A stretch of DNA of 64,000 bases from an uncultured Bacteroidales bacterium (GTDB taxonomy: Bacteria; Bacteroidota; Bacteroidia; Bacteroidales; UBA932): NCBI GenBank assembly GCA_900318565.1, contig ONLD01000002.1, forward strand, positions 1,861 to 65,860, read 5' to 3'. This document shows, piece by piece, positions 3,001-63,717 of this stretch. Position numbers and translations under genes: made by a program. The notes beneath the pieces were generated by a model, which did no database searches, was not told the origin of the DNA, and saw only the letters and a list, made by a program, of their open reading frames with translations. How positions within the stretch are numbered: position 1 is the first letter of the stretch; the number at the start of each line of letters is the position of its first letter.

Positions 3001-3859
3001 GACCTCCGACAAGGACACCAACGCGATGATCCGCGACCTTATAAACAACTACTGCATCACCCTCAAGACTGAAGCCGCCGCTTTCAAGCGTGAAATCGAC
3101 AAGATGAAGGTCGGCGACGAACTGCCCAACGGCGTTATGCAGCTGGCCAAGGTCTATATCGCCAAGAAGCGCAAGATCACCGTCGGTGACAAGATGGCAG
3201 GCCGCCACGGCAACAAGGGTATCGTGGCTAAGATCGTCCGCAGGGAGGATATGCCTTTCCTGGAGGACGGCACTCCTGTCGATATCGTACTGAACCCTCT
3301 CGGCGTGCCTTCACGTATGAACCTGGGACAGATCTACGAGACCGTGCTCGGTTGGGCCGGCAAGCGTCTGGGCATCAAGTTCAGCACCCCTATTTTCGAC
3401 GGCGCAAGCATCGAAGAGATCTGCGACTACACCGACAAGGCCGGCGTGCCCCGCTTCGGCAAGACGCAACTCCGCGACGGCGGCACCGGTGACTTCTTCG
3501 ACCAGCCCGCAACGGTCGGCGTCATCTATATGATCAAGCTCGGCCATATGGTCGATGACAAGATGCACGCCCGTAGCATAGGTCCCTATTCCCTTATCAC
3601 CCAGCAGCCTCTCGGCGGTAAAGCCCAGTTCGGAGGCCAGCGTTTCGGAGAAATGGAAGTCTGGGCCCTCGAGGCTTTCGGCGCAGCAAATACACTGCAG
3701 GAGATTCTGACCGTCAAGTCCGACGACGTGACCGGCCGCAGCAAGACCTACGAGGCCATTGTCAAGGGCGATCCTATGCCGCCGGCAGGTATTCCCGAAT
3801 CCCTCAACGTGCTGCTCCACGAGCTTCGCGGCCTCGGTCTCAAAGTCACTTTGGAATAA
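2..3859 (+). CDS. rpoB: DNA-directed RNA polymerase subunit beta; 5' end lies upstream of the window
   Basis: Frame 2 is open from base 2 ([28 protein letters not shown]...), so the tracked start at 68 is internal. Canonical RpoB blocks are present: [82 protein letters not shown]. Confidence 0.97.
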
Positions 3860-3880
3860 TATCATTGAACGATACTAGTT

Positions 3881-8167
<4,287 letters not shown>

Positions 8168-47799: not shown

Positions 47800-49140
47800 C
47801 CGATAAAGAAAGTTTAACAAAGGACAATGGAGCCGGGCGGTTCTCAATTTTCTGCAATGGGTAAGACCCGCGTATATTTTTTGCCCCGCCCGGCCCGTTG
47901 ATCCAGGACCTGAATAAGAATATCCTTAGTAGCAATAAGGTTTGTAGGTGAAGGATCGACGGCCCACTGTCCGCTAAAAAAAGCAGTGCAAGTTATGAAA
48001 AAAATCTATGTCGGCATCGACATCAGCAAAGAAAAGTGTAATCTTTGCTTCCGCAGTGGTCTTGAGATTGTCCGTGAGGAGGAGTGCTCTAATGACGTAA
48101 AGGCCCTCAAGAAGGCCTTTAAAGCCGTGTTAAAGGCGCTTGGTGCGTCCTTGGAGGAAGTCCTTGTCTGCGCCGAGTACACAGGCAGATACATTTACCC
48201 TCTGACCGTGGCCTGCCAGGAACTGGACATCTTCCTATGGATGGATGATCCCACCCGCATCAAGAACTCAATGGGACTTACCCGTGGAAAGAATGACGCC
48301 ATTGACGCCGCCAGAATCGCAGAATATGCCTTCCGGTATAGCGACAAAGCCGTCCGCTATTCCATTCCTGATGCGGCACTGGCCTCAATGAAGAACCTCC
48401 TCGCAGACCGCGAGTTCCTCCTTATCGACCGAAAAAGGTATCAGTCTCAACTCACCGACCAGAAGAAGTATATGGCTCCTGGCGACTTCAAACATAAGAA
48501 CAGCCGATGGAAGAAGGTCATCAAGTCCATTGACGAGCAGATTGCAGCTATTGATGCCGAGATTGATGCTCTCATTTCTGCCGATCCGGTATTGGTCCGC
48601 CAGAAGGAACTGCTTGTGAGTATTGACGGCATTGGCCCCCGCATTGCAATCAACATGATTGCCATAACCGGTGGCTTCACACGCTTCCAGAACGCACGGC
48701 AGTTCTGCAGCTTCGCCGGACTCACGCCGTACAAGTACGACTCCGGGACCTCAGTCCGCTCAAAGGCCAAGATATCCAAGCGCGCTAATCAGACTATGAA
48801 AGCACTGCTGCATATGAGCGCAGTAAACGTGGCCACGCGCATGAAATCTGGAGAATATAAGGACTACTATGAACGTAAACTCAAAGAAGGGAAACATGTC
48901 ATGTGTATCCTAAATGTGCTTCGGGCAAAGCTCGTTCACAGAATGTTCTCAGTCATCAGACGGGACACCGAATACTCAAAGAAATACAAAACAGTATGTT
49001 AATCCACTATGTATGAAATACTTCCCAGGGGTAGCCGCGCGGCCAGGGGCGGGACGCCCCTATGAGCGCAATAAATATCCACAAACTACACCGCTAAATC
49101 GAAGTGATGAACTATATCCTAACTTCTTTCCAAATCATTT
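47800..49140 (+). mobile_element. IS110-family insertion sequence (boundaries approximate)
   Basis: Contains a DEDD-type IS110 transposase gene with about 190 bp of 5' and about 140 bp of 3' non-coding sequence, and is lower in GC than its flanks. IS110 elements lack classical terminal inverted repeats, so the ends cannot be fixed by eye. Confidence 0.55.
47995..49002 (+). CDS. IS110-family transposase (DEDD recombinase)
   Basis: MKKIYVGIDISKEK (first Asp), VCAEYTGRY (Glu), NDAIDAARIAEYA (Asp-Asp region), and a C-terminal Transposase_20-type block LVSIDGIGPRIAINMI...FAGLTPYKYDSGTS. Confidence 0.9.
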   Translation: MKKIYVGIDISKEKCNLCFRSGLEIVREEECSNDVKALKKAFKAVLKALGASLEEVLVCAEYTGRYIYPLTVACQELDIFLWMDDPTRIKNSMGLTRGKNDAIDAARIAEYAFRYSDKAVRYSIPDAALASMKNLLADREFLLIDRKRYQSQLTDQKKYMAPGDFKHKNSRWKKVIKSIDEQIAAIDAEIDALISADPVLVRQKELLVSIDGIGPRIAINMIAITGGFTRFQNARQFCSFAGLTPYKYDSGTSVRSKAKISKRANQTMKALLHMSAVNVATRMKSGEYKDYYERKLKEGKHVMCILNVLRAKLVHRMFSVIRRDTEYSKKYKTVC

Positions 49141-49175
49141 GGAAAATCCATAAGAATATATACTCAAAAAATTAC

Positions 49176-49183
49176 TATCTTTG
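49176..49183 (+). promoter_or_regulatory. -7 box TATCTTTG upstream of tRNA-Arg
   Basis: Matches TAnnTTTG. It ends 11 nt before the first tRNA base. Confidence 0.5.
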
Positions 49184-49194
49184 CAGTCCGCTTT

Positions 49195-49268
49195 GGTTCC
49201 GTAGCTCAGTTGGATAGAGCAACAGCCTTCTAAGCTGTGGGTCTTGGGTTCGAGTCCCAACGGAATCA
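49195..49268 (+). tRNA. tRNA-Arg (anticodon UCU)
   Basis: 74-nt cloverleaf folded by hand. Acceptor GGTTCCG/CGGAATC (one G-U pair); D-arm GCTC-AGTTGGATA-GAGC; anticodon arm ACAGC-CTTCTAA-GCTGT (anticodon TCT); T-arm TTGGG-TTCGAGT-CCCAA; discriminator A. No encoded CCA. Confidence 0.93.
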
Positions 49269-49292
49269 CTTCCAGGGCATCAACACCGTCCG

Positions 49293-49316
49293 CGCCCGGC
49301 TTCGGCCGGGCGTTTT
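49293..49316 (+). terminator. Rho-independent terminator after the tRNA
   Basis: CGCCCGGC-TTCG-GCCGGGCG is a perfect 8-bp GC-rich stem with a tetraloop, followed by TTTT. Confidence 0.75.
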
Positions 49317-49387
49317 AAAATAGTACGCTTCATATTTGCACTCAATAGTGCAAGATTAAGGCATAATGTGTGTTTAACTAATAAAAA

Positions 49388-50614
49388 ATGCATAAAACCA
49401 TTATTCTGTTAGCGGCGTCCGCGCTGCTCCTTACAAGTTGCGACTTGTCGAGTCTCGGGATTGACACCAATCCCCGTAAGGATATGGTGCTCAGCACAAA
49501 AGCCGCCGAATACATTGAGAGCGGGAATGATTTTTCTCTCAATTTCCTGGAGAAAACCATAGAGAGTTCGGAAAAGAGCTTCGTCATTTCTCCCCTCAGC
49601 CTGCAGTTCCTCCTCGGAATGATTCTCGACGGCGCGCAAGGCAGGACGGCCGACGAGATCTGCGAAGTCCTCGGCTACGGAGCTGGCGAGGTCAATTCCG
49701 TCAACGAATATTGCCGGTCTATGCTCACCCAACTCCCGAAACTCGACAGCAAGACAACTCTAAAAATAGCCAATGCCATCCTGGTCGACAAGCAGGGAGA
49801 ACTGCTGAGCGGCTATAAGACAGCCGTCGCGAACTACTATGAGGCGTATGTCGAGAGTGTCGATTTCAGCAACGGCCCGGCCGCGGTCAGCAAAGTCAAC
49901 TCTTGGTGTAACCGCAACACCAACGGCCTGATAACCAAGATTATAGACAGAATCCCCGCCGACACCTACGCCATCTTGATGAATGCCCTGTACTTCAAGA
50001 GCAAGTGGTCCAGCCCCTTCAAGAAATCCGCCACGGCAGAAGAGTATTTCACCAATGAGGCCGGAGTCAAGTCCAAACTGATGATGATGAAACAGGAGAA
50101 GTCTTTTGCATACACCTGGAACGACGTATGCCACGCCGTCAGGCTGCCCTACGGCAACGGCGCCTTCTCGATGACGGTCGTCCTGCCCTGCGGCAAATAT
50201 ACCGTCACCGATGCTGCGGCTTACCTGAAGAAGGCGGGCTGGTATGCCTTCTCGCATTCGATGTCATCCCACCGTGTCGATCTCTGGCTGCCCCGGTTCG
50301 AGACACAGTACGAAGCCGAGCTCAACGATATGCTCGGAAAGCTCGGTATGCCCACAGCATTCACCCCGGCTGCCGACTTCAGTGCTATGACTAAGCAGCC
50401 CGTCCACATCGACTTCATCAAGCAGAAGGCCATCATCAAGGTCGATGAAGAAGGTTCCGAAGCGGCGGCGGTTTCAATCGGAGGGATGAAAAAAACCGAT
50501 GCTGGCCCCGGTCCTGGCGACCTCGTAGTGTTCCACGCCGACCGTCCGTTCCTCTACTTCATCACGGAGAACAGCTCCGGAGCCATTCTTTTCTCGGGCC
50601 GCTTCAACGGATAA
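49388..50614 (+). CDS. Serpin-family protease inhibitor, lipoprotein
   Basis: 408 aa with lipobox LLLTSCD. Serpin blocks: FVISPLSLQFLLGMILDGAQGRT, NALYFKSKW, hinge/RCL EEGSEAAAVSIGGMKKTDAG, and C-terminal FHADRPFLYFI. Confidence 0.9.
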   Translation: MHKTIILLAASALLLTSCDLSSLGIDTNPRKDMVLSTKAAEYIESGNDFSLNFLEKTIESSEKSFVISPLSLQFLLGMILDGAQGRTADEICEVLGYGAGEVNSVNEYCRSMLTQLPKLDSKTTLKIANAILVDKQGELLSGYKTAVANYYEAYVESVDFSNGPAAVSKVNSWCNRNTNGLITKIIDRIPADTYAILMNALYFKSKWSSPFKKSATAEEYFTNEAGVKSKLMMMKQEKSFAYTWNDVCHAVRLPYGNGAFSMTVVLPCGKYTVTDAAAYLKKAGWYAFSHSMSSHRVDLWLPRFETQYEAELNDMLGKLGMPTAFTPAADFSAMTKQPVHIDFIKQKAIIKVDEEGSEAAAVSIGGMKKTDAGPGPGDLVVFHADRPFLYFITENSSGAILFSGRFNG

Positions 50615-51359: not shown

Positions 51360-51598
51360 AGTCGTTTGGGTTAAATGTTAATATTGGCCGCAAGGTAGTC
51401 ATTATTACCCGTTTCAATTCCGTTTGCAACACTTAAATTAAAAAACGCCCTCCCGCCCGCGCGAGAAGGCCCTTTCCGCTTCAAAGAGTCCAAAAAATCT
51501 GTGATTTTTCCAACGCTGCGCGGCAGCAATGGTCCTACATAGGCTTCGCAGGCGGTTCCCGCAGCACTTTCGCCCCCAGCATCTCGCCACGGAGGTAT

Positions 51599-51681
51599 TT
51601 GTCCTTGAATCAACGCGATTTCAAGGACAACTGCCGTTTTTCCACTACTTTGTCCTTAAAATACCGCGTTTTCAAGGACAA
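51599..51681. repeat. Two tandem copies (51-bp period) of a 32-bp palindrome TTGTCCTTGAA-N10-TTCAAGGACAA
   Basis: Copy 1 pairs 51599-51609 with 51620-51630 as a perfect 11-bp inverted repeat. Copy 2 pairs 51650-51660 (TTGTCCTTAAA, one mismatch) with 51671-51681. Confidence 0.8.
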
Positions 51682-51858
51682 CTCTCCGTATGGAATCACG
51701 GCCGTGAACTGCCCGTCGGCGCCGCAGCCGATGTGGTATGGGTGATAGTAAATGATCAGCCCTTCGCGGATGAGAGCACAGCCGTCCGCATCGCCTAGGA
51801 GCTTGACCGGGTCCTCCGAGGCGTGCTCCGGCAGCAGTAATGTGAGACTTTTGTGCAT
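51610..51858 (-). pseudogene. Possible C-terminal fragment of a DUF3298-like protein
   Basis: REGLIIYYHPYHIGCGADGQFTAVIPYGEL resembles the DUF3298 C-terminal motif (F-x-PY-x-I-A-x-G...IPY). Only about 80 codons are present with no upstream domain, and the 3' part runs into the palindromic repeats. Confidence 0.35.
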
Positions 51859-51951: not shown

Positions 51952-52623
51952 ATGGACACCTTATATCACGGCTCAAAACTGATCATCAAGCGTCCTGTTT
52001 ATGGAAAAGGAAATCCTGAGAACGACTACGGGCTAGGATTCTATTGCACGCGCGAGCAGGAACTTGCCAAAGAATGGGCCTGCGCAGAAGAGGATGACGG
52101 ATTTGCGAACCGATATCAACTCAAGACCGACGGCCTGTCCTGCCTCCACCTCAACAACGACGGATACCATATACTTAACTGGCTCGCCGTTTTGCTAGAG
52201 AACAGAAGGTTCGATCTCTCGTCCCCTGTCGCAGTCAGGGCGCGTCAATACATCCTGGACACATTCCTTCCCGACTACAAAGGATATGACCTGATTGAAG
52301 GATATCGGGCAGATGACTCCTACTTCTCCTTTTCCAGGGCCTTCCTTGCCAACGGAATCACTCTGGAGCAGCTCCGGCGGGCTATGCGCCTGGGGAAGCT
52401 TGGAGAGCAGGTCGTACTGCGTACCCCCGCCGCCTTCGAAGCCGTTTCATTTGTCGAAGCCGTCCCCGTCGATGCATCCATCTATCACGTCCGGCGGCTG
52501 TCGCGTGACAGGAACGCCAGGGAAGACTACCGGAAGATGCTGACCGAGACGTCGGCCGGTACAGAAACATACATATCAACAATCATCAACGAAAAATGGA
52601 ACAACGATGACCCGCGCCTATGA
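51952..52623 (+). CDS. DUF3990-like protein
   Basis: 223 aa. The N-terminus MDTLYHGSKLIIKRPVYGKGNPENDYGLGFYCTREQELAKEWA matches my memory of the DUF3990 signature (LYHGS...DFGxGFYxT...A..WA). Confidence 0.7.
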   Translation: MDTLYHGSKLIIKRPVYGKGNPENDYGLGFYCTREQELAKEWACAEEDDGFANRYQLKTDGLSCLHLNNDGYHILNWLAVLLENRRFDLSSPVAVRARQYILDTFLPDYKGYDLIEGYRADDSYFSFSRAFLANGITLEQLRRAMRLGKLGEQVVLRTPAAFEAVSFVEAVPVDASIYHVRRLSRDRNAREDYRKMLTETSAGTETYISTIINEKWNNDDPRL

Positions 52624-53248
52624 CATCGCCTATCTGGACGACGCAATGACCTCTCTGGGGGCTATGCTGGACTACGCAGTCAATTCCTGCGGCGAGGACC
52701 TCGCCCTTTTCTACGCGCGATTTCTCGCCAGCGGAGTTGCGGACGCATTCTCCAGGGCCAATCCTAAATACCTCGGAGGTATGTCAGGAGTCGAACTGGC
52801 TGCGCTGGTAGCTTCCCGCACAGGCAGCGTGCTTCCGAAAGGAGACGGGCTTATCGACATCGGCAGCCCAGAATACTGGACCGGATGGACGTTGGCATAC
52901 CTGTCCTGGCATCTGGACTTGGACTTCGGGACAATCCAGGCCCGGGGCCTGACAATTCAGTCTCTCCGCGAACGGTATCCCGTCCTGCACGAGGCGGATC
53001 TGTCGAAATCCGTACAATTCGCAGTGATACGGCTTAACGAGACTTCCGGTGGGGAACTGCTCAAACGGGCCCGCAAGAACGCGCGGATGACACAGCTGCA
53101 ACTGTCCGAAATCACGGGAATTCCACTCTCGGTCATCCGCTCCTACGAACAGGACAAGCGCTCCCTGAAAAGCGCCGAGACCGAAAATGTCCGGCGCATC
53201 TGCCGTACCCTGGGCTGCCGGATAGAAGACATCCTATCAATTACCTAG
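52607..53248 (+). CDS. Hypothetical protein with C-terminal XRE-family HTH
   Basis: 213 aa, overlapping the upstream gene by 17 nt. C-terminus: LLKRARKNARMTQLQLSEITGIPLSVIRSYEQDKRSLKSAETENVRRICRTLGC. Confidence 0.7.
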   Translation: MTRAYDIAYLDDAMTSLGAMLDYAVNSCGEDLALFYARFLASGVADAFSRANPKYLGGMSGVELAALVASRTGSVLPKGDGLIDIGSPEYWTGWTLAYLSWHLDLDFGTIQARGLTIQSLRERYPVLHEADLSKSVQFAVIRLNETSGGELLKRARKNARMTQLQLSEITGIPLSVIRSYEQDKRSLKSAETENVRRICRTLGCRIEDILSIT

Positions 53249-53627: not shown

Positions 53628-54767
53628 ATGTATAAGCGACTATTTGATGTTGAGAGTAAGTTAGACGAAGCTATGTTCCTGTTTGGAGCACGTCAGACGG
53701 GGAAATCCACCCTTTTGAAAGAACGGTTCAAAGGCAAGATCTACTACGATTTGCTTGATCCGGAACTGAGGAAATTCTTCAAAAGGAATCCGAATGCACT
53801 TAAGGAGGCACTTGGGGACAAACCGGCCGGAACGTTGGTAATCATAGATGAGATTCAGAAAGTTCCGGAACTACTGGATATAGTCCACTCCCTGATGGTT
53901 GACAAGGGGTTGTGGTTCATTCTCAGTGGTTCAAGTGCCAGGAAACTCAAAAAATCCGGTGCGAACACCCTTGGAGGACGAGCAATCCCTGAAACGTTAT
54001 ACCCCCTTGTATGGCCGGAGGTCACGGACTTTCAGTTAGACCGTGCGGTCCAGAATGGGATGATTCCTCGTCACTATATGGTACCGGACGCTACGAAGCG
54101 CCTCAAAGGTTATGTGGAAGTGTATCTGAACGAGGAAATACGAGAAGAAGGTGAAGTCCGTGAACTGGACGCCTTTGAGCGTTTTATGGAGGTTGCCGCC
54201 ATTTCCGACGGCGAAATGCTGAATTATACGAACATCGCTTCCGATTGTGGAGTCTCAGCCAAAACCGTCCAATCGTATTTCCAGATTCTGTATGATACAC
54301 TGATTGGTTACGAAGTCCCTGCATATAGAAAAGAGGTGAAGCGTAAAATCGTTCAGGCCCCCAGGTTCTACTATTTTGACGTCGGACTGGCCAATTATCT
54401 GATGGGGCGCCATTCTCTGAAACGTGGCACTGACGATTATGGCCACGCTTTTGAGCACCTTGTAATGCAGGAGATAATTGCCTACAAAGGATACAACGAC
54501 AAGAAGGAGGTCATTTCATACTGGCGCACTTACGACAAGAAGGAGGTCGATGCCGTTATCGGAGATGCCCGTGTTGCCATTGAAATAAAATCCGCCGAGG
54601 AGGTCAAGACACGTCATAAAAAAGGATTGAAGGCCTTCCACGAAGAGCATCCGGATTGCCGGCTGATCCTTGTTTCGCTTGAGCCGGTAACGAGGAAAGT
54701 TGAAGACATCGAGTTAATCTATGTACTTGACTTCTTGAAGATGCTGTGGGGCGGTGAGATATTCTGA
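53628..54767 (+). CDS. AAA-family ATPase (AAA_14 N-terminus with DUF4143-type C-terminus)
   Basis: 379 aa with Walker A (LFGARQTGKSTLL) and Walker B (LVIIDEIQ). The C-terminal part (WRTYDKKEVDAVI...IEIK) is typical of the DUF4143 nuclease-like module. Confidence 0.85.
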   Translation: MYKRLFDVESKLDEAMFLFGARQTGKSTLLKERFKGKIYYDLLDPELRKFFKRNPNALKEALGDKPAGTLVIIDEIQKVPELLDIVHSLMVDKGLWFILSGSSARKLKKSGANTLGGRAIPETLYPLVWPEVTDFQLDRAVQNGMIPRHYMVPDATKRLKGYVEVYLNEEIREEGEVRELDAFERFMEVAAISDGEMLNYTNIASDCGVSAKTVQSYFQILYDTLIGYEVPAYRKEVKRKIVQAPRFYYFDVGLANYLMGRHSLKRGTDDYGHAFEHLVMQEIIAYKGYNDKKEVISYWRTYDKKEVDAVIGDARVAIEIKSAEEVKTRHKKGLKAFHEEHPDCRLILVSLEPVTRKVEDIELIYVLDFLKMLWGGEIF

Positions 54768-54790: not shown

Positions 54791-54937
54791 ATGAAGATCG
54801 TTATAGCTCCTGATTCCTACAAAGAATGCCTTTCGTCGAGAGAGGTTGCGGCCGCTATGGCCGATGCTGTGCTACAGTCGTGCCCTTCTGCCGAGGTGGT
54901 GCAGATCCCCCTTGCTGCCAGGTCGGCCCAAGACTGA
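54791..54937 (+). pseudogene. Glycerate kinase N-terminal fragment (about 42 aa of homology)
   Basis: MKIVIAPDSYKECLSSREVAAAMADAVLQSCPSAEVVQIPLA matches the glycerate kinase N-terminus up to the point where the conserved DGGEGT should follow. The frame then diverges and stops at 54935-54937. Confidence 0.7.
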
Positions 54938-55061
54938 CCCCAAAGTTGTCGAGAAAGCCATAAAACTATATGAGTCGAAGACTATGTCTGTCTCCGAGAT
55001 TCTGGAAATAACCGGAATCAAGAAAACTACACTCTATGACTATATAAAGAAAAAGAATTAA
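54921..55061 (+). pseudogene. Serine-recombinase (resolvase/invertase) C-terminal HTH fragment
   Basis: GRPKTDPKVVEKAIKLYESKTMSVSEILEITGIKKTTLYDYIKKKN* is the GRPK linker plus HTH_7 tail of resolvases. No catalytic N-terminal domain precedes it. Confidence 0.6.
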
Positions 55062-55163: not shown

Positions 55164-58118
55164 TTATTCTGTGACGGGACGGACGGATTGCCCGTAGCAG
55201 CGGTCGCAGTAGTAGTCCCTGCCCACATCGCCTGAATAGAAGTACACGCTCCACGCGTCGTACGGATTGCCCGTATTGAGGGACGAAGACCAGTAGTAGC
55301 CGAAGGACCCCGCATCGTTGAGATACGTGCCGCCCCGGTTGCCTGCGGCGGGAAGGAAGATACTGTTGCCGTTAGGACCCGTTACCTTTCTTCCTTTTAC
55401 ACCATTCTGAGTTGTCCAGGTCCATGTACATTTGGTCCTTAACTCTGTCCATTCTGCATCCGTGGGCATTCGCCAACTGCCGCCCCATTTCTCGTGGGCT
55501 GCATCGTCCCCGGGGTCGAGGACTGTCTTATTATCAACCATACCGTAACTGGATTTGGTTACGTACTTAGAGAATGGACCTTTGTAATCAGTTCCTAACT
55601 CAAGCTTGTAGGTTGACCAATTATTAGTAGTCTTGGGCTTCGTCTCGCCCCAGGCGAAGTAATCTCCATACTCCTCCGGTTTGGTGGCTCCGACATTGAA
55701 TGTCGCCCATTTGACGCTCAAGCCAAGGTCTACAGCTAATGGCTCAGTCTCTTGATGCTCAACGCCAAAGAGTTCGGAACGGATGATCTGGCTGCCTTCT
55801 ATACCGTCAGCCTTCTCAAGATTGTTGTCAAGCATATACTTGAAGAAGTGGGCGTAGGTAATCAAGGCGCGCATCGCACTGAAGCATCCCTTGTAGTCGG
55901 TGATGTTGTGGTCGGCGCGGGGATAGGTGCACATATTGGTAATGGCCTGGCCGTGCTGGAAGTTGACGGAACGCTGAGCCCAGTTGTCCAGGATGCGGAC
56001 CTCGACCTGACGGTAGATTTCCTTATCGCCATCGACCTTGCAAAGATATCCACCGTTGGAAGGCTCTGCGTAAGGAAAGTTTCCGAAGTAATAATTGTGG
56101 GTCTCGGGAACTGGGGCGCTCATAGGGAGAGGATTAAACTTAGGGATGTTGCCGAAGCCGTTCTTCTCGGTCTCGTTGCCGTCGTAGCCGCGGAGAAGCA
56201 GGAAGCTGCGGAGTGCAAGCTCGAGCATATCGGCCGTATTGTAAGTCTTGCCGCCCACGGTGATGGTGGTGGCCATAGGCACATAGTGTGCATTCTCGAC
56301 CAGAGTCTGGGAAGTAGGATTGATGCTCTCGGCGTCGCTCTTCATCACATAATCCACGGTGCCGGTGGTTTTCTCCCAAATATCCAGAATCTTAACATAT
56401 TCCTTTGCGAAGTCCTCAATAGTCTCGATTGTATTAGACACTGTAACCTCACAGCTTGTGCTCACTCCACTGGAGGCATAAGCCGTAATAGTAGCAGAGC
56501 CGACGGCTACGGCGGCGACAATGCCATCCTTATCCACATTTGCAACAGATGTATCACTTGACTCCCAGTGAACATCCTTTGCTGTAGCATTCGCAGGGAT
56601 GATTGAGGTCGTCAGCTGCTCCGAGTCACCAGGACACAGATCCAGCGAGGTTTTGTCTAAAGAGATTGATGATACTATGACAAATTCGCCATAGACGGGA
56701 CGGACAGATTGCCCGTAGCAACGGTACAGGTCGTACATGCCCACATCGTCTGAATAGAAGTCCACGTACCACGCGCGGTACGGATTGCCCGTATTGAGGG
56801 ACGAAGACCAGAAGAGGCCGTAGGACCCCGCAAAGAAGAGACTCGAGACGCCCCGGCGGCCTGCGGCGGGAAGGAAGATACTGTTGCCGTTAGGGCCGGT
56901 TACCTTTCTACCGTTTACTCCATTCTGAGTTGTCCAGGTCCAGGTACATTTGGTCCTTAACTCTGTCCATTCTGCATCCGTAGGCATTCGCCAACTGCCG
57001 CCCCAATTCACGTGGGCTGCATCGTCCTCGGGGTCGAGGACTGTCTTATTATCAACCGTACCGTAACTGGAGTTGGTTACGTACTTAGAGAATGGACCTT
57101 TGTAATCAGTTCCTAACTCAAACTTGTAGGTTGACCAATTATTAGTAGTCTTGGGCTTCGTCTCGCCCCAGGCGAAGTAATCGCCGTACTCCTCGAGCTT
57201 GGTAGCTCCGACATTCATTGTCGCCCATTTGACGCTCAGACCAAGGTCAACCCACTCCGGTTCAACCACAGTACTTTCCCAGTTGGACACTTTTGAATCT
57301 ACATTCTTCAGCACGCCGAATGTCGATCGTTTAATAGTTTGAGCCTTATCGCTGACAAGTTCACCTTTCTCCTTTTCCGTGGAGAACGTTATCGTGAATC
57401 CGCTATCAAGAGCCTTGGGCAACAGGGTGACATAGTAGTACTTGCCGGGCTTGAAGGCACCCCCTTCAGGCGCAACGAGAGTCACTTCCGCTTTGGCATC
57501 AATCACCTCTTGCACGACTGGAGTTCCATCTATACCAAATGATACCCTAACTTTACCGGCCAGGGGCTCATTGTTGTTCCCCTTGAATGTCACTGATTTA
57601 ATATCACTTCTGGACACGAAGAACTTGACACCTCCACAAATATTCCAAAATGCAAGACTAAGTGAACTCGATTTAGCGACCGTTGGGAAAGCATCATTTG
57701 AAAAATTTCCTTCGACGCCCGTTTGCTGGTCCGGGATTACTGTTGTTATAGAGTTCCCATCGCAGGAGTTTTCTTCCGAATAAGGGTACACGGCCCAAAA
57801 GTCCTTGCCTGAACCGGCCATCTGAACGGAACCCTGTAATTCTACGGTCTCGGCTATTGCCGTATTCATTGACACAAATTTACTTCCTCCGCTGCTTCCG
57901 CTGCCGTAGAAAACACTGACTTCCTCAGCAGGGCTCCACCATACAGAGCCGTCATCAAGACGGAAAGACTTTGTACCGGGATTCACTCCTTCCCGTGTCG
58001 CAGTCAACACAATCTCTTTCTCGGGGATAGAAATGGCTTCTGTTGACTCGATTATATCATTGCAGGCTCCGAAGACAGCCACTGACACTAAAGGGATAAG
58101 TTTGAATATAGTTTTCAT
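55164..58118 (-). CDS. Large surface lipoprotein: fimbrillin-like N-terminus, FISUMP/DUF1566-like domain, Big_2, unassigned central domain, second FISUMP/DUF1566-like domain
   Basis: 984 aa with lipobox VAVFGACN. The module LGLSVKWATxNVGA...GDYFAWGE...WRMPTDAEWTEL...IFLPAAG...YWSSS...GQSVRPV occurs twice. The Big_2 block is LDLCPGDSEQLTTSIIPANATAKDVHWESSDTSVANVDKDGIVAAVAVGSATITA. Confidence 0.9.
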   Translation of the reverse strand: MKTIFKLIPLVSVAVFGACNDIIESTEAISIPEKEIVLTATREGVNPGTKSFRLDDGSVWWSPAEEVSVFYGSGSSGGSKFVSMNTAIAETVELQGSVQMAGSGKDFWAVYPYSEENSCDGNSITTVIPDQQTGVEGNFSNDAFPTVAKSSSLSLAFWNICGGVKFFVSRSDIKSVTFKGNNNEPLAGKVRVSFGIDGTPVVQEVIDAKAEVTLVAPEGGAFKPGKYYYVTLLPKALDSGFTITFSTEKEKGELVSDKAQTIKRSTFGVLKNVDSKVSNWESTVVEPEWVDLGLSVKWATMNVGATKLEEYGDYFAWGETKPKTTNNWSTYKFELGTDYKGPFSKYVTNSSYGTVDNKTVLDPEDDAAHVNWGGSWRMPTDAEWTELRTKCTWTWTTQNGVNGRKVTGPNGNSIFLPAAGRRGVSSLFFAGSYGLFWSSSLNTGNPYRAWYVDFYSDDVGMYDLYRCYGQSVRPVYGEFVIVSSISLDKTSLDLCPGDSEQLTTSIIPANATAKDVHWESSDTSVANVDKDGIVAAVAVGSATITAYASSGVSTSCEVTVSNTIETIEDFAKEYVKILDIWEKTTGTVDYVMKSDAESINPTSQTLVENAHYVPMATTITVGGKTYNTADMLELALRSFLLLRGYDGNETEKNGFGNIPKFNPLPMSAPVPETHNYYFGNFPYAEPSNGGYLCKVDGDKEIYRQVEVRILDNWAQRSVNFQHGQAITNMCTYPRADHNITDYKGCFSAMRALITYAHFFKYMLDNNLEKADGIEGSQIIRSELFGVEHQETEPLAVDLGLSVKWATFNVGATKPEEYGDYFAWGETKPKTTNNWSTYKLELGTDYKGPFSKYVTKSSYGMVDNKTVLDPGDDAAHEKWGGSWRMPTDAEWTELRTKCTWTWTTQNGVKGRKVTGPNGNSIFLPAAGNRGGTYLNDAGSFGYYWSSSLNTGNPYDAWSVYFYSGDVGRDYYCDRCYGQSVRPVTE
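55173..55730. repeat. Intragenic direct repeat, copy A (encodes the C-terminal lectin-like domain)
   Basis: Aligns base-for-base with 56694-57248 over about 555 bp. It is near-identical across the central ~400 bp and much more diverged, with a 3-bp indel, in the ~130 bp encoding the domain's C-terminal end. Confidence 0.9.
56694..57248. repeat. Intragenic direct repeat, copy B (encodes the first lectin-like domain)
   Basis: See copy A; long identical runs include GGAAGGAAGATACTGTTGCCGTTAGG and TTGACCAATTATTAGTAGTCTTGGGCTTCGTCTCGCCCCAGGCGAAGTAATC. Confidence 0.9.
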
Positions 58119-58384
58119 AAGGCCGTTTCGTTATATTACCCAATCTTCGTCTGTGGTCCCTTCCAGCCCCCCTTCTACTGGGCTCTGGCAAACTAATACC
58201 GATAAACCATAATTCGGCTCAAAATCGCACTCTGGCCGCAAATAAAGTCTTTTATCAATCATAGTGTTTTCTCAACTCCTGACGTTATATATTATATTCA
58301 GTACTAACAATACAAAGTGTGTTCATTTTTTCGTTTTCGCCTGTACGGGAGTAAAACGTCCGAGAAAGCAGAAGTAGGTTTATA

Positions 58385-58933
58385 TTACAAAACTTTCCAA
58401 GTATAAATGACGAAAGCCTGTCTATCCATAACAGAATAAGCTTTGCAAGCAATAATATCGTCTACAATTGTTATTTGAGTGCCGACATTTTGGTCGGGAT
58501 AGTTGTAAATAAAACTCATCTGTTTCAAAATACGACTAGCATTGTTTATGGGTCTTTCGTCTAGTTTGTCTCGGCGGCAGACTAAAACAAAATATCGATC
58601 CTCATTGCCCCTCTGGTCGTGAAGTTTGCGAAAATCATTCAAAATAGAACTGATCCCATAATGGAGCGTTTCTGAATCTTTGATGTATGTTTTTAACTCA
58701 TACCTAATTCTTAATGAATTATCAGTTTTATTCCTAATAACTAAATCGGTCCTATTTTCTTGCTCCTTTTGAAATAGAATAGTTCTTGGAGCAATATCAG
58801 ATTTCAAAAGAATCGTTCTAATATCTTCTTCGCTAACGGAATTTGTCTGCTCGCTCATAAGTGATTCTATCTTCTCAACGGAAGATTTTATTAATAGTCT
58901 ATGGATAGTGCTGTTTCTCATATAAAAACACAA
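58385..58933 (-). CDS. Orphan protein with PD-(D/E)xK-like motif (third gene of the AT-rich operon)
   Basis: 182 aa; an alternative start at M5 is 58921. The segment TDLVIRNKTDNSLRIRYELKT gives D-x15-E-x-K in a predicted beta-beta context, preceded by an acidic helix (SEEDIRTIL). No other family motif recognised. Confidence 0.65.
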   Translation of the reverse strand: MCFYMRNSTIHRLLIKSSVEKIESLMSEQTNSVSEEDIRTILLKSDIAPRTILFQKEQENRTDLVIRNKTDNSLRIRYELKTYIKDSETLHYGISSILNDFRKLHDQRGNEDRYFVLVCRRDKLDERPINNASRILKQMSFIYNYPDQNVGTQITIVDDIIACKAYSVMDRQAFVIYTWKVL

Positions 58934-58939
58934 GAATTG

Positions 58940-59476
58940 CTATTTTAGATAGTCAAGAACGGGAACAACAGACACTGTGCGGATACCGGTTCTCTCACCA
59001 GTATCTGTGAATTGAAATGTTTCAATCTGCACTCGGTTCGTAACTATCAGTATTTTGCTTTTGAACGCATTATAAAACTCAACAACATTAGCATTATCTG
59101 GAATGTCTTTAGATATAGGACTAATGTATGGACAACCCTCTTTGCAATAATCTCGACGAGTAAAAGTGCCCAAACCAATAAAACGATTCTTGTCATTTAC
59201 ACGACACAAGATACTGTAGTTTTTTGGGGCGTCGTCTCTATCAGATGCGTGACGTTTCTGCGCTTTAACAATCAGTTTATCAAGGAATTCAATCTTTGCT
59301 CCTACAGGAAGAAGAGTCGCGTAATTACGCATTTCAACAGAATAAAGATGCTCTTCTGTCAGGACCACAGCTGTACGTCCTTGTGATTCACCAATTAAGG
59401 CAGGAATATTTTCGTCATTAAAATTTTTCATTTTCTTAGGAACGTCGAAGAACCGTCGACTATTTTGATGAGGCAT
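58940..59476 (-). CDS. Orphan protein, 178 aa (second gene of the AT-rich operon)
   Basis: The ORF abuts the upstream gene (stop of 59477-59800 is directly followed by this ATG) and ends 6 nt before the next gene. No recognisable family motif. Confidence 0.65.
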   Translation of the reverse strand: MPHQNSRRFFDVPKKMKNFNDENIPALIGESQGRTAVVLTEEHLYSVEMRNYATLLPVGAKIEFLDKLIVKAQKRHASDRDDAPKNYSILCRVNDKNRFIGLGTFTRRDYCKEGCPYISPISKDIPDNANVVEFYNAFKSKILIVTNRVQIETFQFTDTGERTGIRTVSVVPVLDYLK

Positions 59477-59800
59477 TCATTTCTCGTTCAATTTTTCAGC
59501 CTTCTCTAAAATCATTTCTTTGCTTGTTCTGTTTGAATTATTATAGCAAGAGAGCTCGGCTTCAATTTTGCTAAGTGCATCACAAATAATATTGATTAAA
59601 CTATCGCCTTTCACGTCTTGTGCCCAACAGAGACCTAGCTGTTTAAGATCAACACCAAGGTAGTCGTTGAACACTTGAGCGGCAGCGTTAATTAATGTGT
59701 CGTGTGAGTATTCAATCCTGCTGTTATTCGCGATTGGTAGGTATCGCCACATAACGAGATACTTTTTAATCTCTTCTTTAGGGTCAATTACTTTGCTCAT
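59477..59800 (-). CDS. Orphan small protein, 107 aa, probably all-helical (first gene of the AT-rich operon)
   Basis: First ORF of a tightly packed three-gene minus-strand unit. No recognisable family motif. Confidence 0.6.
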   Translation of the reverse strand: MSKVIDPKEEIKKYLVMWRYLPIANNSRIEYSHDTLINAAAQVFNDYLGVDLKQLGLCWAQDVKGDSLINIICDALSKIEAELSCYNNSNRTSKEMILEKAEKLNEK

Positions 59801-59801
59801 T

Positions 59802-59818
59802 TGTGATAGTGTATCACA
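59802..59818. promoter_or_regulatory. Perfect palindrome TGTGATA-GTG-TATCACA abutting the start codon of the AT-rich operon (operator candidate)
   Basis: 7-bp inverted repeat arms with a 3-bp spacer, lying 1 nt upstream of the ATG at 59800 on the minus strand. Confidence 0.35.
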
Positions 59819-60149
59819 TCCCTGCCCCCTCGGGATCTATTAAACAAAAAAAGTGTGGAGCAATTCGTTTATCTGGATAGAGGCTCTGGTAAGCCCACGA
59901 ACAAATAAACGATACTCCACACCAATTATGGCGATGTGCAGATAGCACAAAGCACCACGACAGGTGATGGGAGTGATCAGCTTATCCTCGTTCTTGTTGA
60001 AATTTACCAGATTTCTATCCAAGGATAAAAGCGAAAACACTTTCATCAGTATGTAATGTCCCGAAGGACAACTACAAATATAAGAAATGTTTTTGACAAT
60101 TAAACCGTAACCCCGTCCACTTTCCGCATTGGATTCCGCCTAAGATAGG

Positions 60150-60284
60150 GACCTTTGCCTCAAAGAAAGGGATACGACAACGCCCCCTCAAGACCCGGTC
60201 AAGGGTCAGTCCGCAGCGGCAGCCGCTGCCCATAGGTGAGCATCCGCCAGATCCATTCGACGGGCCCGAAGCGGAAATGACGCA
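60150..60284. repeat. 135-bp direct repeat, copy 1 (orphan duplicate of the 3' end of the DUF418 gene plus 48 bp downstream)
   Basis: Identical to 62184-62318 except for 4 mismatches, counted by eye. Confidence 0.9.
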
Positions 60285-60405
60285 GAAGGACCTTGCCCGC
60301 AAGATGGGGCGGTCGGAAACTGCAATATCGCGGTGGATATCGGGCTTTCCCAACCTCACGCTGAAATCCATTGCCGAGATTTCCACTGCCCTTGGCGAAC
60401 CCCTA
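60277..60405 (+). pseudogene. XRE-family HTH fragment (N-terminally truncated)
   Basis: MTQKDLARKMGRSETAISRWISGFPNLTLKSIAEISTALGEPL covers helices 2-5 of an XRE HTH. The first helix is missing and the M-T-Q codons lie inside repeat copy 1. The remainder of the ORF is Arg-rich nonsense. Confidence 0.5.
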
Positions 60406-60510: not shown

Positions 60511-61818
60511 TCACATATTTCTCATAGATAACCCCACAAATGATATCGTCCAGTTCTTGTGGTGGTTGACGATGGAGGCTGCCTTTTCTTTGAGTTGTTG
60601 AAGGTTTATCTTTTCCGGATTGCGTTTGACCTCTCCAATGACAATCTCTTTTTCGGCTTCGTCTACGGCAATAAGGTCGATTTCATCCTTCCCGTCTTTC
60701 TTCCAGTAATTAGTGACCAGATTATACCGGCCTGTCTCAGAATACTTTTGGCGGAAATACCGCTCAAGGATGTCCCCTGAATATGTCTCATAGTCGCCAA
60801 GGACTTTCCCTTGCACCCATTCCAGATTGCCTACTTCTACTGCGCTCCTGTATCGATAGATGAAGCGGAACCAGAAATTCAGGAAATTGTCTGAGATGAC
60901 GTATTCCACACTTTTCGTATTCTCGCCAGCCAAATAGGGACGGCGACGGCTGATAATGTCAAAGTCGTTTTCCAACTTGTCCAGGTACCCGCCTGCTTCA
61001 ACACCGGTATAGCTTTTTATTTCGCCCCTCGAAGTCTCTCCCGTGGCGATGGCAGACAAGATGGAGAAATAGTTTCCGTAATCCTTGCCAAACTCATCTC
61101 GCAGCATTTCCTGTCCTTCGTCCAGGAAAAATGAACCGACAGAAAGAGCATCCTTGACGATCTCGTCTTTTGAGAATGCCCCGCGGGTCATGAGCAACTC
61201 CACGTATTTTGCCACGCCTCCGGTAATCATATAAAGTGCAAGAAGGTCCTCTTCTGAGTTTTGAGGGTTGAAATCATTCAGGATGATCTTCAGCGTTGCA
61301 AGGTTAAACGGCCGGATCTTAAGGCGGGCAGTCGCCCTGCCGTACAGAGGCTCGTCCTTGTCATCGAAGATCTTTTTCATCTTGGAGTAGATGGAGCCGC
61401 AGACAACGAAATTTATCCGGCTCTCTTCTTTATTGGCATCCCAAACGCTTTGAATATCCGAGAAAATGGAGTCCCTGGTATGAGTGAGGTTCTGGAATTC
61501 ATCCATCACCAAAGTGAAATTGCGGCGTTTTGATATGCTGAGAATTGCCCCCAACAGCCGGGGGAATGAAGTGAAACTGCCAAGATCTTCTCCCAGTTCT
61601 TCCCGAATGATATCTGAAAGTTCCTCGCACAAAAGAGCCTCGCTTTTCTTGCCGACAAAGAAATAGACAAAAGGAATCTTTGTGAAAGCTCTTTTGATGA
61701 GAGTGGTTTTGCCGATACGCCTTCGTCCGGTGATAACCGTCATTTGCGCATCGTGAGAGGAAATTTCTTCAACTTTCCGGAGCGCTTCCAGCTCCTGTTC
61801 TCTGTCGTAAAACTTCAT
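60511..61818 (-). CDS. AAA ATPase of the archaeal-ATPase/DUF234 type
   Basis: 435 aa. N-terminus: MKFYDREQELEALRKV. Walker A: ITGRRRIGKTTLI. Walker B: LVMDEFQ. The C-terminal DUF234-like region is DEIDLIAVDEAEKEIVIGEVK. Confidence 0.85.
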   Translation of the reverse strand: MKFYDREQELEALRKVEEISSHDAQMTVITGRRRIGKTTLIKRAFTKIPFVYFFVGKKSEALLCEELSDIIREELGEDLGSFTSFPRLLGAILSISKRRNFTLVMDEFQNLTHTRDSIFSDIQSVWDANKEESRINFVVCGSIYSKMKKIFDDKDEPLYGRATARLKIRPFNLATLKIILNDFNPQNSEEDLLALYMITGGVAKYVELLMTRGAFSKDEIVKDALSVGSFFLDEGQEMLRDEFGKDYGNYFSILSAIATGETSRGEIKSYTGVEAGGYLDKLENDFDIISRRRPYLAGENTKSVEYVISDNFLNFWFRFIYRYRSAVEVGNLEWVQGKVLGDYETYSGDILERYFRQKYSETGRYNLVTNYWKKDGKDEIDLIAVDEAEKEIVIGEVKRNPEKINLQQLKEKAASIVNHHKNWTISFVGLSMRNM

Positions 61819-62183: not shown

Positions 62184-62318
62184 ACCTTTGCCTCAAAGAA
62201 AGGGATACAACAACGCCCCCTCAAGACCCGGTCAAGGGTCAATCCGCAGCGGCAGCCGCTGCCCATAGGTGAGCATCCGCCAGACCCATTCGACGGGGCC
62301 GAAGCGGAAATGACGCAG
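62184..62318. repeat. 135-bp direct repeat, copy 2 (native 3' end of the DUF418 gene)
   Basis: See copy 1. Positions 62232-62318 encode the C-terminus ...LRHFRFGPVEWVWRMLTYGQRLPLRIDP*. Confidence 0.9.
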
Positions 62319-63457: not shown

Positions 63458-63717
63458 GCGTCTGTTTTTGAGTTGTGCAAGTGTACAAATCAATCAGGTA
63501 ACGCCGCCGGACTGTCCCCTGCCCTTGTCCCGAAAGATTACCAGATTCCTATCCAGGGACAGGGAATCCGATGCTCCGGCGGTGCGTTGCCTGCCACGGT
63601 CTGCCCGCTCTCCCATCAACGCACAAAGCGAGCCAGGCACGATATAACCTAACTCGCTTTGTGGGCTCCGAGCTCCACGGTACTCAGACTTGGCGTCCCT
63701 AAAGACAGTAGAGGAGT

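Follow-up and report, generated by a model that had tools for sequence, protein, structure and literature searches.

What kind of genetic unit is formed by three small AT-rich genes that lie side by side on the minus strand in an accessory region of an uncultured Bacteroidales bacterium (GTDB lineage UBA932)? The genes, designated open reading frames (ORFs) A, B, and C, are located on contig ONLD01000002.1 of assembly GCA_900318565.1, within a stretch of 64,000 nucleotides (positions 1,861 to 65,860 of the contig) that was analyzed as a whole and is hereafter called the window. The initial annotation regarded them as a self-contained, nuclease-based module for phage defence, abortive infection, or toxin-antitoxin activity. 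The computational analysis described here points to mosaic cargo rather than an autonomous module: A, B, and C would be carried in an operon that opens with a conserved structured leader RNA and ends with the gene for a large predicted surface lipoprotein. This reading has about an even chance of being correct, and its functional part is much less certain.

The A-B-C block (58385-59800) has a guanine-plus-cytosine (GC) content of 36.7%, with 34% at third codon positions (GC3), compared with 55.4% for the entire window, of which it is the lowest-GC stretch. Among segments of equal size, the 5th percentile lies at 44.8%, and every segment below 42% overlaps the block or the adjoining AT-rich spacer. 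The sharp compositional discontinuity seen at the outset is therefore real, the deviation being far beyond chance variation, and it points to a foreign origin, as does the presence of ORF B relatives on phage contigs. The 0-nt spacer between A and B and the 6-nt spacer between B and C, reported together with the tight packing on the minus strand, hold for the longest ORFs. All aligned relatives of ORF B (37/37) open at its Met16, and ORF C starts with MRNST in its relatives and in the database copy, so that the true spacers would be about 45 nt and about 18 nt. As the initial annotation had stated, none of the three proteins belongs to a recognized family: Pfam and NCBIfam gave no family match, PADLOC-DB 2.0 gave none at E-values up to 1, and PHROGs v4 gave best E-values of 0.011, 0.36, and 0.0038 for A, B, and C, all to uncharacterized families. 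No described system and no prophage genes covering the trio were found in PADLOC or PHROGs, and tblastn of the three proteins against GenBank phages returned nothing. The label "orphan" fits A, which has one homologue, and roughly fits C as far as close relatives are concerned; it does not fit B, for which 45 homologue clusters were found.

The three genes do not co-occur as a conserved unit. The trio was found only in contigs carrying this same locus, and each gene was found without the other two; C-family genes without A or B are present in the loci designated L017/L018, L023/24, L025-27, and L034-36. Proteins identical to A, B, and C occur on 23-28 metagenome contigs. The 22 gut-metagenome contigs read for the identical B protein all represent the same locus with the same gene order, and exact database copies of ORF A come solely from it. 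No cassette-type repeats were seen by eye after each ORF. The initial annotation had itself named the absence of the trio from other genomes as a reason to abandon the module, and the proposal of a self-contained three-gene nuclease module is not supported here.

The one homologue of ORF A (59% identity, 85% positives, equal length; detected by tblastn and ORF inspection) occupies the same place behind the leader RNA in the rumen Bacteroidia metagenome-assembled genome (MAG) L019, without B or C. A homologue of the lipoprotein gene follows there, and between the two lies a counterpart of the small ORF s43, whose frame and peptide (...CQSPV[ED]GGLEG...E[ED]DWVI*) are kept in L019 (5157-5288). 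Its product might act as a short leader peptide or, alternatively, as a small protein with coupling to the lipoprotein. By blastn, window positions 60093-59527 correspond to L019 4451-5016 and window positions 58265-57159 to L019 5155-6258; the region of B and C is thus an indel between the two genomes (Table 1). The lipoprotein carries an N-terminal signal and a lipobox-like sequence (...AVFGAC). A 300-nt internal direct repeat in its gene (55212-55511 and 56730-57029, 89% identical) corresponds to its two Lcl_C/FISUMP-like domains.

On the minus strand between positions 58000 and 60200, just one TAnnTTTG box is present, ahead of the leader. TAnnTTTG is assigned as a promoter element from the established Bacteroides promoter consensus. 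Leader, A, B, C, s43, and the lipoprotein gene all lie on the minus strand, with the terminator-like U-run at the end of the leader in the path. Since there is a single box, one transcript is predicted to cover all of them. The trio has no promoter box of its own and sits between the conserved leader and the lipoprotein gene, in a frame that is syntenic in L019, which further argues against self-containment.

A rod-shaped leader RNA ahead of surface-protein genes

The leader folds into a 5' hairpin and a long rod closed by the stem GAAAGUGU/ACACUUUC, and its fold z-score is -7.3. This rod-closing stem overlaps a terminator-like stem (GUGUGGAG/CUCCACAC) with a U-run behind it, the 3' strand being common to both. 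Ten distinct copies were located by exact-word scans, by inspection of the contexts of ORF C relatives, and by BLAST of GenBank phages (the window, L018, L019, L020, L022, L023, L026, L034, L037, and L038), together with a partial copy in L017. A candidate copy in L021 was rejected as a chance 20-mer match in a metagenome. The TAnnTTTG box precedes the leader in 8/8 copies checked, and the hairpin with its U-run is found in all ten. Searches for the leader in plasmids and in IMG/VR returned nothing.

Evidence for a structured RNA comes from both compensatory substitutions and strand specificity. The covariance model R1 scores the sense strand of the window at 252 bits and the antisense strand at no more than 34 bits among the matches listed, and a model built from five close copies detects divergent ones over their full length at 50-121 bits. 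In the alignment of ten copies, which was fitted to the structure of the model, pairing is kept in 96.1% of cells, and compensatory double changes (102 cells) occur at 51 of the 80 pairs. These values were reached by none of 500 shuffles, while slid controls gave 40-46% pairing and 10-15 such pairs. Independent minimum-energy folds of eight copies, including the divergent L023, L026, and L034, gave the same architecture. Many G·U pairs and the strand asymmetry favour a leader RNA on the minus strand. In L034, the common strand (ACAC/ACGC) reads ACGC with a matching GCGU on both candidate partners, and the terminator stem of L023 (GUGUGAGG/CCUCACAC) covaries; these changes, read by eye, fit two mutually exclusive pairings, in which the strand would close either the rod or the terminator stem.

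Conservation does not stop at the U-run. It extends into a small hairpin, G-rich in its loop, that adjoins the first start codon; its stem letters change with pairing kept in L017, L018, L019, L020, L026, and L034, and it is missing in L022. The first ORF begins within about 40-70 nt of the U-run in 10/10 copies, and in the other genomes checked, too, the first genes after the leader have a higher AT content than the sequence around them.

Several other identities of the element were considered and rejected. A 68-aa ORF on it (orf68, 59840-60046) was discarded as a gene. Its "homologues" in L017 and L018 are frameshifted, the match being piecewise across different frames, which indicates a non-coding element, and the region covaries as RNA. 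A retron, an integron attC site, a miniature inverted-repeat transposable element (MITE), and 6S RNA were likewise rejected: no reverse transcriptase was found, the element is present in a single copy per locus with its own promoter, and Rfam gave no 6S hit. Rfam 15 gave no hit at the gathering score in the window, and on the leader none at E-values up to 5 except a chance-level microRNA model (E 3.8). No sequence match to the leader was found in the first 200 supplementary files of Fremin & Bhatt 2021 (PMC8040213), and the leader may be among the unnamed candidates of that study. The leader is a conserved structured RNA without a curated family and apparently undescribed. A weak nhmmer match (E 0.002) to leader-profile positions 68-108 at 63517-63561 (minus strand), which also occurs in the same-locus contigs, is probably due to chance.

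The contents of the operons headed by the leader differ from genome to genome (Table 1). Promoter type, domain content, and the homologous loci in "uncultured Bacteroidia" MAGs also suggest that the window itself probably comes from a Bacteroidales member. The L038 element contains a tyrosine integrase (Arm-DNA-bind_5), an HTH_17 excisionase, and a BT4734/PriCT primase. L038 and L037 are GenBank MT836914.1 and MT838511.1, respectively, both deposited as "UNVERIFIED Bacteriophage sp.", and L038 looks like a Bacteroidales integrative element rather than a phage. In L020, the cluster at 399-4995 (minus strand) comprises the 243-aa ORF, a LytTR protein, an FHA protein with a transmembrane segment and a zinc ribbon, then a 93-aa acidic protein, a caspase-like lipoprotein, an FHA protein with a zinc ribbon, and a PP2C phosphatase; this cluster looks like a conflict or signalling system. 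L017 shows the same LytTR-FHA start behind its C homologue. Directly upstream of the leader, on the same strand, a gene for a free-standing protein of about 178 aa is present in the two rumen MAGs L019 (3788-4321, plus strand) and L020 (5428-5967, minus strand); both proteins match the CdiA C-terminal toxin domain (28.5 and 21.6 bits, respectively).

The leader could also be an independent, terminated small RNA that acts in trans, with the downstream ORFs as unrelated neighbours expressed by leakage or from unrecognized promoters. The long hairpin and U-run that close the conserved core speak for such an RNA, the rod recalls 6S-like RNAs, and the downstream genes vary widely. This alternative is nevertheless unlikely, since conservation passes the U-run into the covarying hairpin at the first start codon, the distance from the U-run to the first ORF is short in all ten copies, no other promoter box lies within 2 kb upstream of the lipoprotein gene, and the downstream genes share a theme of surface proteins and nuclease folds.

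ORF C and its nuclease-like signature

ORF C carries the D-x15-E-x-K arrangement noted initially (TDLVIRNKTDNSLRIRYELK), with D59, E75, and K77 in the numbering of the 178-aa protein. The protein has two close relatives, and exhaustive HMMER searching of 1.84 billion representatives gave 34 representative relatives. In the family alignment A6 (33 sequences), E53, E75, K77, K81, D96, and K99 are invariant, and E31, D59, Y74, E84, L100, and F111 are conserved at 90% or more. The order helix-E...D...ExK expected of a PD-(D/E)xK protein is therefore present, with E75 and K77 invariant and E31 and D59 at or above the 90% level. Six relatives match the N-terminal nuclease domain of HsdR (HSDR_N, PF04313): P0090 reaches 26.4 bits against a cutoff of 25.1 over the motif region, and P0072 scores 20.6 bits. 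DUF7149 is matched by five family members, and HSDR_N_2, Mrr_cat, and NOV_C each gave a single weak match. The PD-(D/E)xK reading in the initial annotation thus gains from the family as a whole, and ORF C is a probable PD-(D/E)xK protein, the assignment being transitive through its relatives. A plasmid search with ORF C gave nothing.

The AlphaFold2 (AF2) model of ORF C, built from three sequences, is poor, with a predicted local distance difference test (pLDDT) score of 51. Its low-confidence order is alpha-beta-beta-beta-alpha-beta (helix 31-39, strands 48-54, 57-64, and 70-76, helix 83-104, strand 109-116), in which D59 opens strand 2 and ExK lies inside strand 3; a Foldseek search of this model against PDB gave nothing significant. 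Among the remote family members, P0090 (377 aa) combines the nuclease-like domain with a phage-integrase SAM-like N-terminal domain, and P0088 (299 aa) combines it with a DUF433 domain. Taken together, the relatives of ORF C are a new, small family of predicted stand-alone HsdR-N-like PD-(D/E)xK proteins, with a recurrent and unexplained home in giant-surface-protein operons of gut and rumen Bacteroidales.

The recurrence of nuclease-type genes near the leader raises the question of whether the protein and the RNA work together. ORF C might process the rod to control the operon or might use the RNA as a cofactor, A and B being passengers. C-family genes (30-60% identity) lie in leader-headed operons at five independent loci (the window, L017/18, L023, L026, and L034), a different PD-(D/E)xK protein (REase-ARP) is encoded directly behind the leader in L038, and in L019, L020, and the window the leader is closely preceded by nuclease-fold genes (CdiA_C-like or DUF234). 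However, the leader has no nuclease gene downstream in L019, L020, L022, and L037, ORF C homologues in L026 and L034 are 3-4 kb away from the leader behind a large surface-protein gene, and the remote C relative in L028 has no leader. No variable guide-like segment was identified in the RNA beyond the apical hairpin. A direct partnership of this kind is accordingly given a low probability. The broader proposal that the rod RNA and the accompanying PD-(D/E)xK proteins are partners in an undescribed accessory system of Bacteroidales chromosomes and integrative elements is quite improbable. If it were true, the RNA would sense or gate the nuclease, or even guide it or undergo processing by it, with the co-expressed giant surface proteins altering the cell envelope, and a new RNA-linked system for phage defence or surface variation would exist in dominant gut bacteria.

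Phage relatives of ORF B and the surrounding accessory region

The homologues of ORF B, in 45 clusters, are about 163 aa long and show 48-72% identity. The AF2 model of ORF B has a pLDDT of 91.4. Foldseek with this model found no match in PDB (best E 0.3), and a sequence-profile search of PDB gave nothing; the best match in BFVD is an uncharacterized viral protein (E 1.7e-4, template modelling (TM) score 0.62). At the sensitivity used, searches of PHROGs, IMG/VR, and GenBank phages found no member of the family. For the four homologues that were looked up (P0012, P0022, P0024, and P0038), identity is 51-69% and the GC content of the contigs is 35-44%. In the four contigs checked for coding, TGA is the only stop codon that occurs in frame within the called genes, which end with TAA or TAG. 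Neighbours of the homologues in L001 and L031 match PHROGs with E-values of 1e-37 to 1e-57, and matches to replication initiators and lytic tail or endolysin proteins were also obtained there. In-frame TGA and these neighbours identify the contigs as phages that read TGA as sense, and outside the present locus the ORF B family was seen only on such contigs. Recoded phages of this type have been described from gut Bacteroidetes and Firmicutes (bioRxiv 10.1101/2021.08.26.457843).

The contigs L001, L005, L007, and L031, which carry ORF B homologues, have 35-37% GC, and some of their TGA codons fall in glycine-rich runs, where TGA may stand for Gly (code 25) as opposed to Trp (code 4). On the phage contigs, some with at least 10 kb of flanking sequence, the ORF B homologues are preceded by a gene for 141-154 aa. 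Paralogy of ORF B with the upstream 154-aa phage gene was not supported (hhalign probability 5.6%).

A phage source for ORF B also allows another view, in which B and C (and perhaps A) would be remnants of an inserted phage or mobile element, in decay and without a function in the host. The lowest GC of the window, the phage relatives of ORF B, the indel of B and C relative to L019, and the resolvase and helix-turn-helix (HTH) fragments and IS110 transposase nearby would fit such debris. This is distinctly improbable: each of the three ORFs is intact, has the full length of its homologues, and keeps all family-invariant residues; identical proteins are found on the numerous metagenome contigs mentioned above; and the C family has been kept time and again in operons of one type.

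The flanks were described initially as containing ATPases, a resolvase fragment, and long direct repeats, and all of these are present. The two ATPase genes encode AAA_14/DUF4143 and ATPase_2/DUF234 proteins, and the resolvase fragment is of HTH_7 type (Table 1). Besides the duplication in the lipoprotein gene, the ATPase_2/DUF234 gene is enclosed by the two copies of a 135-nt direct repeat (60151-60285 and 62184-62318), which are 97% identical and lie 2033 nt apart. One comprises the 3' end of a DUF418 gene and downstream sequence, and the other lies about 70 nt upstream of the leader promoter. This arrangement suggests that the ATPase segment came to lie between the leader and the DUF418 gene by insertion or duplication. 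The accessory region also contains two overlapping genes at 51952-53248, the first for a DUF3990 protein (223 aa) and the second for a protein of 213 aa whose C-terminal domain is of HTH_3 type; they resemble a toxin-antitoxin pair. A short distance upstream of the DUF3990 gene are two tandem 35-nt copies (51598-51632 and 51649-51683, 86% identical) with internal palindromes (TTTGTCCTTGAA...TTCAAGGACAA). At one edge of the variable region (47986-50614), an IS110-family transposase, tRNA-Arg(TCT) (49195-49269), and a serpin gene (49388-50614) occur together, and this site may be an integration hotspot.

Table 1. Features of the locus in window coordinates, and genes found behind other copies of the leader
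Feature	Position	Strand	Description
ATPase gene	53628-54767		AAA_14 + DUF4143; best PADLOC hit candidate PDC-S01
Resolvase fragment	54846-55061		HTH_7
Predicted surface lipoprotein	55164-58118	minus	984 aa; Big_2 and two Lcl_C/FISUMP-like domains (Pfam/NCBIfam)
s43	58131-58262	minus	43-aa ORF directly upstream of lipoprotein gene
Segment missing in L019	58263-59526	minus	about 1.26 kb: 3' tip of A, B, C, C-to-s43 spacer
ORF C	58385-58921	minus	178 aa from MRNST, 34.5% GC; longest ORF 58385-58933, 182 aa, TTG start
ORF B	58940-59431	minus	163 aa from Met16; longest ORF 58940-59476, 178 aa
ORF A	59477-59800	minus	107 aa, 38% GC; intact
Small G-rich-loop hairpin	59818-59836	minus	AUCCC-GAGGGGGCA-GGGAU, between U-run and ORF A start; read by eye
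Leader RNA	59843-60073	minus	231 nt: 5' hairpin, then rod of about 200 nt, about 80 bp near-continuous
Bacteroides-type -7 promoter box	60075-60082	minus	TATATTTG
ATPase gene	60511-61818		ATPase_2 + DUF234; best PADLOC hit candidate PDC-S27
Behind leader in L017/L018			C homologue, LytTR, FHA
Behind leader in L019			A, s43, lipoprotein
Behind leader in L020			243-aa ORF, LytTR, FHA, caspase, FHA, PP2C
Behind leader in L022			1224-aa Big_2/LRR_5 lipoprotein
Behind leader in L023			C, 330 aa, Big_2, LRR_5
Behind leader in L026			Big_2 (987 aa), 82 aa, C
Behind leader in L034			BACON (1271 aa), C
Behind leader in L037			zinc-ribbon membrane protein and uncharacterized ORFs; after WYL regulator
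Behind leader in L038			REase-ARP PD-(D/E)xK protein, predicted lipoprotein, further uncharacterized ORFs

The module of the initial annotation, a defence, abortive-infection, or toxin-antitoxin unit with a PD-(D/E)xK effector, is very unlikely: tight co-oriented packing, foreign-looking composition, the conserved nuclease signature, the PDC-S01 and PDC-S27 matches of the flanking ATPases, and the conflict-associated REase-ARP nuclease behind the leader on the L038 mobile element speak for it, but the trio is confined to contigs of this one locus, its genes occur separately elsewhere, none of them has a PADLOC, Pfam, NCBIfam, or PHROG hit or a promoter box belonging to the trio, and no conserved toxin-antitoxin-type gene pair was seen among them.

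Interpretation of the operon and comparison with known systems

The reading favoured here, mosaic cargo in a leader-headed lipoprotein operon, can be put as a sequence of events. A single Bacteroides-type promoter would drive the leader, which ends in the terminator-like hairpin and U-run, and read-through would transcribe A, B, C, s43, and the lipoprotein gene. The same leader appears to head analogous accessory operons in other Bacteroidales genomes and in at least one integrative element, in which either large surface proteins (Big_2, LRR_5, BACON, or FISUMP) or signalling proteins of the membrane are encoded, with a PD-(D/E)xK protein as a very frequent companion. The three genes would have been assembled piecemeal: ORF A and the lipoprotein gene look like a simpler, possibly ancestral frame, as in L019; ORF B would derive from the family carried by the TGA-as-sense phages; and ORF C would be a small HsdR-N-like protein with its catalytic signature intact, from a family that recurs in leader-headed surface-protein operons. 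The leader may gate expression through mutually exclusive pairings (full rod versus terminator stem) or may make transcription of the long operon processive. With the leader in the permissive state, a nuclease-fold protein and a phage-derived protein would be co-expressed with the surface lipoprotein, and the operon would most plausibly take part in conflicts that involve phages or mobile elements, or else help to vary the cell surface. The three genes would accordingly be patchwork cargo and not a new three-gene defence architecture.

Several points weigh against this reading. Co-transcription and read-through of the hairpin are predictions from the sequence, and the leader could equally be a stand-alone small RNA. 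Four of the leader copies (L019, L020, L022, and L037) are not followed by a nuclease gene, the remote C relative in L028 has a different context, the context of L029 is too short to judge, and only a handful of loci were sampled. ORF C of the window itself has no significant match in Pfam, PDB, or Foldseek searches, so that its probable place in the superfamily depends on its relatives; the structure model of the protein is poor as well. The alignment behind the covariation counts was fitted to the structure of the model, and its effective diversity is modest, with identity above 85% among five of the ten copies. For A and B, the family scans gave no link to any function.

The structured leader is the more important outcome of the analysis. 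Operons for surface proteins begin with it both in chromosomes and in at least one integrative element. In Bacteroidales, susceptibility to phages, adhesion, and recognition by the immune system are shaped by surface lipoproteins and BspA/Big_2/BACON proteins; an RNA switch dedicated to the genes of such proteins would thus add a layer of regulation that is open to direct testing.

Comparison with known systems shows partial likeness in each case. As in defence islands, both flanking ATPases match candidate models (PDC-S01 and PDC-S27), and the DUF3990-HTH pair, IS110, and resolvase debris lie in the region; in contrast, A, B, and C match no PADLOC model, and PDC-S01 and PDC-S27 are themselves predictions. 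ORF B resembles phage morons and genes of TGA-recoded gut phages in that its family adjoins replication-initiator and lytic-tail genes there, whereas here it lies in a bacterial chromosome within a host operon, with no other prophage genes around. ORF C shares with the HsdR N-terminal nuclease domain the helix-E...D...ExK signature at the expected places. It differs in being free-standing (about 175 aa), without a helicase or motor domain and without HsdM or HsdS partners, in the additional invariant residues E53, K81, D96, and K99 of its family, and in its setting behind a leader RNA and beside surface-protein genes.

The leader resembles the EAR and put processive-antitermination RNAs. As with attenuators, riboswitch expression platforms, and other terminator/antiterminator or processive-antitermination leaders, a long structured RNA forms the 5' end of long operons, here for surface structures, and the 3' strand of its hairpin with U-run may pair with either of two partners; the leader has no sequence or structure match to any Rfam family. 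The UpxY-controlled capsule operons of Bacteroides likewise open with a leader and locus-specific regulators (PMC11685472), but no NusG-like gene is present in the leader-headed operons found here. Compared with riboswitch aptamers, the leader stands apart as a near-continuous rod of about 80 bp.

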